Source: Escherichia coli (GTDB lineage Bacteria > Pseudomonadota > Gammaproteobacteria > Enterobacterales > Enterobacteriaceae). From it: a DNA stretch of 64,000 nt. Shown piece by piece: positions 60,560 to 61,043 of the stretch (positions are counted from its first letter, which is position 1; the number at the start of each line of letters is the position of its first letter). A program made the translations under genes and the position numbers. The notes beneath the pieces were generated by a model. That model had not been told where the DNA came from. It ran no database searches and saw only the letters and a list, made by a program, of their open reading frames with translations. Location: NCBI RefSeq assembly GCF_003790525.1, contig NZ_CP033633.1; one strand, written 5' to 3'.

Positions 60560-61012
60560 ATGAAATTTATGGAATGTGCTGTCCGGGATGTGATTTATGG
60601 GACCAATGTCCGTCTTGTCAAACCGGTCAACATTTATGAATGTGAACTCGGGGACAATGTGTTTGTCGGCCCCTTCGTTGAGATACAGAAAGGCTGTGTC
60701 ATTGGTAGTGGAAGTCGGATACAGTCGCACACGTTTATTTGTGAGAACGTAACACTGGGGGAGAAGTGCTTCATTGGTCATAACGTGACGTTCGCCAACG
60801 ATCTGTTTCGTTCAGGAGCACCAGATCCGTCACCGGATAACTGGATCAGCATTACCCTGGGGGATTCGGTTACTGTTGGCAGTGGAGCCATTATTCTGTC
60901 TCCGTATATATGCAGCGGAGCTGTTATTGGTGCGGGTTCAGTTGTGGTAAAACCGATTGAGAACAAAGGCATTTATGCAGGAAACCCGGCAAGACTGCTC
61001 AGAATATTATGA
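60560..61012 (+). CDS. hexapeptide-repeat acetyltransferase (left-handed beta-helix family)
   Basis: ~150 aa from MKFMECAV...; imperfect hexapeptide repeats (VFVGPFVEIQKGCVIGSGSRIQS...); ORF track start at 60530. Confidence 0.65.
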   Translation: MKFMECAVRDVIYGTNVRLVKPVNIYECELGDNVFVGPFVEIQKGCVIGSGSRIQSHTFICENVTLGEKCFIGHNVTFANDLFRSGAPDPSPDNWISITLGDSVTVGSGAIILSPYICSGAVIGAGSVVVKPIENKGIYAGNPARLLRIL

Positions 61013-61020
61013 AAAAGAAA

Positions 61021-61043
61021 AGGGCCGTTACTGGCCCTTTTTA
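61021..61043 (+). terminator. rho-independent terminator
   Basis: AGGGCC-gttact-GGCCCT followed by TTTTT, 9 bp after the acetyltransferase stop. Confidence 0.65.

Follow-up and report, generated by a model that had tools for sequence, protein, structure and literature searches.

A left-handed beta-helix acyltransferase gene left behind by an IS-associated deletion on an Escherichia coli plasmid is a probable amino-sugar N-acetyltransferase of a six-gene module

The small acyltransferase gene at positions 60560-61012 of the window, by which we mean the whole 64,000-nucleotide stretch of Escherichia coli plasmid DNA analysed here, is best explained as the orphaned amino-sugar N-acetyltransferase gene of a mobile module whose remainder was lost in a deletion associated with insertion sequences (IS), with a kanosamine-type compound as the predicted substrate. 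Judging from sequence and homology, we give this reading as a whole a probability of roughly 55%. The gene itself is a fairly ordinary relic and represents neither a new antibiotic-resistance gene nor an independent cargo gene.

Results

The acetyltransferase gene is intact and is followed by a bidirectional terminator

The open reading frame runs on the plus strand from an ATG at 60560 to 61012, is intact and encodes 150 amino acids. The program-made ORF list places its start at a GTG at 60530; the ATG at 60560 (MKxxE) is the start in all homologues and in the PGAP annotation of WP_032353631.1, a protein annotated as 'acyltransferase' that is 100% identical to the window protein. The native 5' region of the gene (60212-60559, plus strand) is 98% identical by blastn to positions 7913-8260 of NZ_CP027311, the reference plasmid with an intact locus (hereafter L002). 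Read directly from the sequence, this region contains an AAGGA ribosome-binding site at 60546-60550, 9 nt 5' of the ATG, and a candidate -10 hexamer, TATAAT, at 60516-60521 that is preceded by a TG at 60514-60515. Both elements are common to E. coli plasmid and chromosomal copies of the gene, and the TATAAT presumably represents its promoter element. A consensus promoter scan picked another site, CTGACA-18-TATGAT, at 60257-60286.

Four bases past the stop codon lies a terminator hairpin at 61017-61042 with the sequence AAAAGGGCC-GTTACT-GGCCCTTTT. It folds on the plus strand with -16 kcal/mol (z -2.7) as well as on the minus strand with -14.4 kcal/mol (z -3.4) and has T-runs on either side, and it therefore represents a bidirectional terminator. 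In intact loci the acetyltransferase gene and the convergent flavin-containing monooxygenase (FMO) gene use this one common hairpin, and a hairpin with other stem sequences is found at the equivalent position in the module loci of Pectobacterium, Cedecea and Pantoea. An Rfam search of positions 58000-64000 at a permissive threshold yielded an IS frameshift pseudoknot as its sole match and no riboswitch or leader 5' of the acetyltransferase gene or of the deleted operon.

Insertion sequences flank the gene and 4.56 kb of a partner operon have been lost

A complete IS3-family element of 1310 bp (58902-60211, plus strand) is located 349 bp 5' of the acetyltransferase start codon. The element possesses 25-nt inverted repeats (58902-58926 and 60187-60211), two overlapping ORFs (orfA at 58956-59282 and orfB at 59279-60169) and an ALIL frameshift pseudoknot at 59237-59353 (116 bits, Rfam), and we take it to be IS629-like. 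Homology to the intact locus begins at 60211, with window positions 60211-61280 corresponding to L002 7912-8982 and window positions 61473-61998 to L002 13543-14068 at 98.5% identity (blastn). The first of these blocks ends in the remnant of the FMO gene, its last 78 codons and stop (61044-61280, minus strand), which was also recovered by tblastn using the FMO C-terminus (E 3e-53). The second block contains the first 24 codons of an NtdA/KabA-like DegT aminotransferase gene (61473-61544, minus strand; L002 CDS 12376-13614, minus) followed by the kept upstream (promoter) region of the deleted operon (61545-61998, minus strand), which is AT-rich with a GC content of 0.36-0.38 and matches no Rfam family. 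Located between the two blocks is a 192-bp left-end remnant of an IS3-family element (61281-61472, minus strand) that has no counterpart in L002 and includes the first 43 or so codons of orfA, from 61408 (ORF MSRKTQRYSKEFKAEAV...). As the blastn blocks flank this remnant, 4560 bp of the L002 operon have been swapped for 192 bp of IS sequence. Of 5426 complete E. coli genomes, 3060 contain the same 192-bp sequence, which is annotated there as 'transposase'. The truncated ends of the FMO and aminotransferase genes had been overlooked in the preliminary description of this DNA. What that description did report at this locus, an LbH (left-handed beta-helix) acyltransferase of about 150 residues with its own strong terminator between IS3-family sequences, is confirmed by the reading frame, the Pfam match given below, the hairpin folding and the mapping of both flanks.

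The window holds no further copy of any module gene. All that is left of an Ntd/Kab-type context are the 24 aminotransferase codons, with nothing of the NtdB-type phosphatase gene. The deletion configuration of the window is found in 17 plasmids at an identity of at least 99%, with chickens as the source of most of those listed. In other E. coli plasmids the FMO gene breaks off at 164 bp or at about 360 bp, in the latter case beside an IS21 element, and these differing break points indicate that the module decayed several times. We regard it as nearly certain that the acetyltransferase locus of the window is the remnant of a six-gene module. The gene had been described as stand-alone, but its isolation is secondary: compared with L002 it has lost 4.56 kb of partner operon, and it belongs to a six-gene amino-sugar module.

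The intact module is predicted by homology to encode a kanosamine-type pathway

In L002 the acetyltransferase gene is convergent to a five-gene operon encoding, in this order, a DegT aminotransferase, a HAD-IIB phosphatase, a Gfo/Idh/MocA oxidoreductase, a SemiSWEET and an FMO-like monooxygenase. Intact modules are found, for example, at 110.5-116 kb of this plasmid and on pAPEC-O1-ColBM (NC_009837). When compared with solved structures in the PDB, the aminotransferase matches KabA (1.5e-90) and NtdA (3.8e-88) far ahead of the next family (6e-50), and the phosphatase matches NtdB (7e-47; next match 1e-6). The top matches of the Gfo/Idh/MocA protein are sugar C3-dehydrogenases (E 1e-15 to 1e-14), with equivalence to NtdC holding at the family level only. 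The best solved relative of the monooxygenase is a PKS-associated FMO domain (PDB 8odw, 4.8e-63), presumably an amine-to-oxime N-oxygenase, and the SemiSWEET sequence matches that of the crystallised E. coli protein (4x5m) at 100% identity. The NtdABC/KabABC route of Bacillus leads from glucose-6-P through 3-oxo-glucose-6-P and kanosamine-6-P to kanosamine. By homology, the first three enzymes of the operon are predicted to make kanosamine (3-amino-3-deoxy-glucose) via its 6-phosphate. Our literature searches turned up no study characterising either the protein or its cluster, the only relevant mention being a paper on the pAA plasmid that gave such genes the label ntdABC in passing (PMC5320562).

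A search seeded with the FMO identified further modules, located on chromosomes, in Pantoea ananatis, Erwinia amylovora, Photobacterium damselae and Plesiomonas shigelloides. All of them show the full six-gene arrangement and the inter-gene hairpin, each with different flanks, and Pectobacterium likewise has the six-gene arrangement. In Cedecea the FMO gene adjoins the acetyltransferase gene and is cut by a contig end, consistent with the presence of a module. An NtdA-type aminotransferase gene together with an NtdB-type phosphatase gene adjoins the acetyltransferase gene in L002 and in the relatives L088, L089, L094 and L095. Other FMO homologues, in Yersinia canariae and in the Streptomyces-family actinomycete Actinacidiphila yeochonensis, are found in unrelated contexts that are uninformative on the acetyltransferase. 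The module arrangement also provides arguments against an amino-sugar N-acetyltransferase belonging to the pathway: the gene is convergent to the operon and not co-transcribed with it, and Edaphovirga alone carries the operon without the acetyltransferase gene, with a GNAT acetyltransferase gene located divergently upstream.

The preliminary description had named clear membership in a sugar O-acetyltransferase clade tied to a chromosomal pathway as evidence that would speak against it. The findings come close to this with respect to the sugar pathway and depart from it in that the pathway is mobile and the sugar an amino sugar.

The protein has an LbH fold and groups with amino-sugar N-acetyltransferases

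The Pfam Hexapep model (PF00132) recognises tandem hexapeptide repeats in the window protein at 60 bits, above its cutoff of 27, and the protein has the features expected of an LbH fold. A first AlphaFold model based on a shallow 22-sequence alignment reached a pLDDT of 65 and was discarded; the model based on a 71-sequence alignment, drawn from a search of a representative library, has a pLDDT of 95.9. There is hardly any room for doubt that the product is an LbH acyltransferase, and acyl-CoA-dependent transfer by a trimer is suggested by the C-terminal YAGNPAR-type motif and by homology. The family to which the protein belongs is uncurated, highly conserved and 150 amino acids long and is found in Enterobacterales, Vibrionales and Aeromonadales. 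The window copy retains all invariant or near-invariant residues, namely N24, E41, Q43, S56, H57, H74, N80, D81, W95 and YAGNPAR at 139-145.

No curated NCBIfam model reaches its cutoff with the window protein. The NeuD/PglB/VioB model (TIGR03570) gives 62.2 bits against a cutoff of 160.8, with the best stretch at profile positions 154-202, and membership in this family was rejected on the whole-protein score. Lower scores are obtained with WbbJ (42.8 bits, cutoff 243), WcaF (41, cutoff 192), LacA (34.7, cutoff 347), Maa (31.8, cutoff 314), Vat (31.8, cutoff 300) and CatB (28.4, cutoff 350), and for the Vat, CatB, Maa, LacA and WbbJ models the best-scoring stretch comprises the C-terminal ~50 residues only.

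The top matches of a single-sequence search of solved structures are QdtC, FdtD, VioB and WlbB. A family profile built from 22 members and compared with the PDB returned QdtC (7.6e-14), FdtD (3.7e-13, aligned over the full length), the Helicobacter pullorum 3-amino-sugar N-acetyltransferase (5e-12), WlbB (9e-12) and VioB (1e-11), followed by Maa/LacA at about 2e-9 and CatB at 4e-7 or above. The FIGHNVTFAND sequence of the family is matched in the alignment by FIGPNVTFTND in both FdtD and the H. pullorum enzyme, and the QdtC/FdtD/WlbB type is closest in both sequence and structure, including the Asn-Asp motif that contacts the sugar. Against the amino-sugar reading, FdtD has Gly and Pro at the positions of the invariant H57 and H74, and catalytic details of the family therefore differ. 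Clade assignment had been proposed as a way to decide between Vat/Cat-like xenobiotic acetyltransferases and sugar O-acetyltransferases. The protein falls in neither group: on profile E-values it is placed with the amino-sugar N-acetyltransferases, with a gradual margin. We consider the chance that it is an amino-sugar N-acetyltransferase to be somewhat better than even.

The same comparisons bear on other LbH enzymes. A sugar O-acetyltransferase of the Maa/LacA/WbbJ/WcaF kind, directed at a hydroxyl of a free sugar or a polysaccharide precursor, would be in line with the weak C-terminal matches to these models, and H57 and H74 might act as a general base. A Maa/LacA-like identity was rejected given scores below the curated cutoffs and profile E-values weaker than those of QdtC and FdtD, and we regard an O-acetyltransferase as unlikely. 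A Vat/CatB-type xenobiotic acetyltransferase conferring streptogramin or chloramphenicol resistance would fit a small LbH acetyltransferase encoded on a mobile plasmid with IS elements on either side, as well as the C-terminal GNPAR-type match to the Vat and CatB models. With scores below the curated cutoffs and only that C-terminal stretch matched, this identity was also rejected and is very improbable.

Foldseek discriminates less between LbH proteins and lists E. coli YrdA among the top matches (E 6e-7, TM up to 0.77). This would be expected if the protein were a gamma-carbonic-anhydrase-like LbH protein of the YrdA/PaaY/CaiE type and no acyltransferase, and the conserved H57 and H74 are one coil apart, resembling part of the gamma-carbonic anhydrase zinc site with its three histidine ligands. 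However, the position of the third histidine is A79 in the family, the C-terminal YAGNPAR motif is typical of CoA-dependent enzymes, the AlphaFold model ends in strands and lacks a C-terminal helix, and family-profile E-values are weaker, leaving a carbonic-anhydrase-like protein a very small chance.

A second ORF in the window, at 23456-23944, had been paired with the acetyltransferase gene as encoding another small enzyme of this fold. The pairing proves superficial: identity to the window acetyltransferase is 27% and confined to the repeats, and the second ORF resembles CysE/EpsC/WcaB with scores below the cutoffs (EpsC 86.9 against 150 bits, CysE 77 against 210.65). In NZ_CP029742, a near-identical plasmid, the corresponding ORF carries the annotation 'serine acetyltransferase, frameshifted', a pseudogene. 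As judged from these comparisons, the two are unrelated beyond the fold.

Most relatives are solitary and module-linked copies form one subclade

In PLSDB, 524 plasmids carry the 1-kb region, and almost all are conjugative IncF-type plasmids from E. coli and Salmonella. Among 5426 complete E. coli genomes, 423 (~8%) carry the acetyltransferase gene, at 354 plasmid and 91 chromosomal places, and 405 carry the SemiSWEET gene; the aminotransferase gene and the 3' part of the FMO gene are found at 80% of their length or more in 66 and 71 genomes, respectively. In most plasmids listed the SemiSWEET gene adjoins the truncated FMO gene. The sixfold excess of the acetyltransferase gene over the aminotransferase gene was considered as an argument for selection on orphaned copies and rejected, as the SemiSWEET gene is equally common. 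Prevalence in E. coli therefore reflects plasmid lineage and provides no evidence of selection.

A family scan using one genome per species yielded 373 relatives, and neighbourhoods were sampled at 85 loci, comprising the best 80 of the 373 loci and five loci around individual homologues. The FMO gene or other module genes adjoin the acetyltransferase gene in only 6 of the 85, and about 75 lack Ntd-like and FMO genes over a distance of 10 kb, which implies that kanosamine was not necessarily the ancestral substrate of the family. Across the wider family, most members are solitary and located in Enterobacterales chromosomes. A fixed position between psiE/malG and yjbH/pgi is seen in Klebsiella, Raoultella, Kluyvera and Citrobacter (60-63% identity); in Providencia the gene lies beside pckA and in Brenneria after an ATPase operon, and in these two genera, as in one Photobacterium strain, the solitary copy sits amid unrelated housekeeping genes.

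Median pairwise dN/dS is 0.087 between orphans (100 pairs), 0.076 between module-linked copies and 0.092 for mixed pairs; purifying selection is therefore equally strong on solitary and on module-linked copies. Between the window copy and L002 there are 3 synonymous and 7 non-synonymous differences; substitution counts among the close E. coli copies are too few for interpretation, though compatible with relaxed constraint.

In a neighbour-joining tree of the family, all module-linked copies fall within one subclade in which solitary ones are interspersed. Some of the solitary members carry relics: Edwardsiella has FMO remnants, and Brenneria and Photobacterium retain the left half of a terminator of the E. 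coli type. These copies therefore stem from module loss, like the copy in the window. From the tree and the neighbourhoods we conclude that the module recruited one branch of a family that was already solitary, and that this branch has moved with it.

These observations bear on the possibility that the protein is a detoxifying or housekeeping acetyltransferase of general, stand-alone function that acts on a substrate unrelated to the Ntd-like module, adjacency being a historical accident of co-mobilisation in one subclade. The predominance of solitary members in unrelated chromosomal contexts, the shared level of purifying selection and the convergent orientation with a candidate promoter and a terminator of its own all agree with such a role. 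On the other hand, at least five lineages with a complete module, which differ in their flanks, have preserved the convergent pair and its common hairpin, with identities of 72-91% for the acetyltransferase and 54-91% for the FMO. The monophyly of the module-linked copies in the neighbour-joining tree and the FMO or terminator remnants beside several orphans of the subclade, which mark these as module-derived, likewise argue against it, and we regard a general function of this kind as improbable, at about one in five.

Discussion

The proposed function is N-acetylation of a kanosamine-type amino sugar

In the orphaned N-acetyltransferase reading that we prefer, the acetyltransferase gene is the sixth gene of the module in its subclade, convergent and separately terminated, with the other five forming one operon. 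The enzyme would use acetyl-CoA to acetylate the 3-amino group of its acceptor, which would be kanosamine, kanosamine-6-phosphate or a derivative oxygenated by the FMO. To a kanosamine-type acceptor we assign slightly less than an even chance. The closest solved enzymes, which use dTDP- or UDP-linked amino sugars, argue against it, as the Ntd/Kab pathway proceeds through sugar phosphates and a free sugar. Acetylation of the amino group may neutralise a self-made or exogenous amino sugar that inhibits GlmS, or it may tailor the product. Kanosamine is phosphorylated to kanosamine-6-P, an inhibitor of GlcN-6-P synthase (PMC9272926). In light of this inhibition, the simplest reading of an acetyltransferase that is encoded next to the operon and transcribed separately is self-protection, with tailoring as the alternative; a protective role is tentative and in our estimate rather doubtful. 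The IS-associated 4.56-kb deletion took the operon and left the acetyltransferase gene with its candidate promoter, ribosome-binding site and bidirectional terminator. On the window plasmid, which lacks the cognate pathway, the enzyme could act only on a substrate that is exogenous or comes from the host, or else the gene is a mere hitch-hiking relic.

A broader and more speculative proposal, which we consider unlikely as it stands, is that the six-gene module makes an N-oxygenated, kanosamine-derived antimetabolite and exports it via SemiSWEET, with the acetyltransferase as its dedicated immunity gene, acting by N-acetylation, and the solitary copies, the window copy included, as orphan immunity genes that protect against producers. 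If true, the crystallised E. coli SemiSWEET would gain a physiological substrate, and the module and its orphans would represent, among competing enterobacteria, a counterpart of colicin and orphan-immunity systems that works with a small molecule. The module, together with the hypothesis that solitary copies are immunity genes, is a better lead than the window gene itself.

More generally, IncF plasmids carry a mostly decayed and uncharacterised NtdABC-like amino-sugar cluster with FMO and SemiSWEET genes, of which the acetyltransferase is a conserved partner. This context provides a testable substrate hypothesis both for an uncurated family widespread in Enterobacterales and for EcSemiSWEET. 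It also speaks against reading the gene as a Vat/Cat-type resistance determinant, and the history of the gene illustrates how IS-mediated decay yields seemingly stand-alone cargo genes on plasmids.

Comparison with known systems

Vat and CatB have the LbH fold, the use of acetyl-CoA (inferred for the window protein) and a mobile context in common with the window protein. Maa, LacA, WbbJ and WcaF share the LbH fold, the small size and a sugar-related function and are structurally further from it than the N-acyltransferases. Self-resistance and orphan immunity genes, such as colicin immunity genes that run opposite to the toxin gene, offer a conceptual analogue. The acetyltransferase gene is small, convergent and separately transcribed next to a biosynthetic operon, and it is widespread in solitary form, both in relatives and on decayed plasmids. 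Its prevalence on E. coli plasmids is equally explained by hitch-hiking.

The closest comparison is with FdtD, QdtC, WlbB and the H. pullorum enzyme, with which the window protein has in common the LbH core, a CoA-binding region at the C-terminus and the NVTFxND motif. These trimeric enzymes acetylate the 3-amino group of a glucose-type sugar, which fits the 3-amino sugar predicted for the partner operon. In contrast to them, the window protein, at 24-28% identity, is a bare 150-residue LbH without an extra domain and has the invariant H57 and H74 that they lack. Acceptors of the FdtD type are nucleotide-linked, whereas the acceptor of the window family is probably a free or phosphorylated sugar because the Ntd/Kab-type partner pathway is devoid of nucleotide sugars.

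With the NtdABC/KabABC systems of Bacillus the enterobacterial operon shares strong homologues of NtdA/KabA and NtdB and a Gfo/Idh/MocA dehydrogenase. To our knowledge, the Bacillus ntd and kab operons contain no SemiSWEET, FMO or LbH acetyltransferase gene. The enterobacterial module adds a SemiSWEET, an FMO-type monooxygenase and a convergent LbH acetyltransferase to an Ntd/Kab-like core.

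The plasmid is a mosaic of IncI-type and IncF-type segments

Comparison of window positions 2144-60211 with NZ_CP029742 (loci L092 and L001), the best-matching and near-identical plasmid, shows the window to be a mosaic of IncI-type segments, including the pil type IV pilus genes and a partial nikB, and IncF-type segments carrying IncFII repA and ccdAB. The window is rearranged relative to NZ_CP029742 and the break points are copies of an IS3-family element. The copy at 58902 has on its left a sequence equivalent to the vapBC/nikB' region of NZ_CP029742; in that plasmid, hypothetical genes occupy this position. 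To the right, the relic LbH acetyltransferase gene is followed by ccdA, ccdB and a resD-like site-specific recombinase gene (62378-63725), representing the usual F-plasmid maintenance region. A related plasmid encodes colicins M and B just past the point matching the window end. Within 23357-23944, the open reading frame described in the preliminary description as a second hexapeptide acetyltransferase is CysE/EpsC/WcaB-like and is overlapped by a 176-residue open reading frame in a different frame. The NZ_CP029742 annotation lists its counterpart as a serine acetyltransferase pseudogene with a frameshift.

LbH acetyltransferase genes and modules in other genomic contexts

Solitary LbH acetyltransferase genes are found at 91 chromosomal places in complete E. 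coli genomes. The one such locus inspected, in strain EBJ003 (L093; NZ_CP086334, 4262865-4263317), lies in an integrase-bearing island adjoining a tRNA-Phe gene, amid transposase and CP4-57-like remnants. At 12 chromosomal loci of a Phytobacter/Kosakonia-type clade, a gene for a protein of ca. 169 residues is located directly upstream of the solitary LbH acetyltransferase gene on the same strand (L086:9461-9973 in one of them). Judging by its sequence, this protein looks like a GNAT, and the two genes possibly form a two-acetyltransferase operon.

Among the modules found, only that of Edaphovirga cremea (L096) lacks the LbH acetyltransferase. A divergent gene upstream of the aminotransferase gene encodes an unrelated 191-residue GNAT acetyltransferase (L096:3672-4247), which may be a non-homologous replacement or else a coincidence. 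In Pantoea ananatis, an apparent biosynthetic cluster encoding a radical SAM protein, a lyase, two ATP-grasp ligases, an MFS protein and PhyH (L088:13239-19478) is located ca. 2 kb past the acetyltransferase end of the module, and CdiI and RNase-toxin-like genes flank the operon side. This module is therefore located in a competition-gene-rich island.

The module SemiSWEET is identical to a crystallised transporter

The SemiSWEET gene is missing from the window, having been deleted between 61280 and 61473. It belongs to the NtdABC-like operon carried by IncF plasmids (L002:10275-10544 in NZ_CP027311). It is almost exclusively plasmid-borne (413 of 417 places). This location and distribution suggest kanosamine or a derivative as the physiological substrate of E. 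coli SemiSWEET. The operon-encoded protein is 100% identical to the crystallised E. coli SemiSWEET (PDB 4x5m/4x5n), for which the structure paper names genomic DNA of 'E. coli K-12' (strain JCM 20135) as the amplification source.
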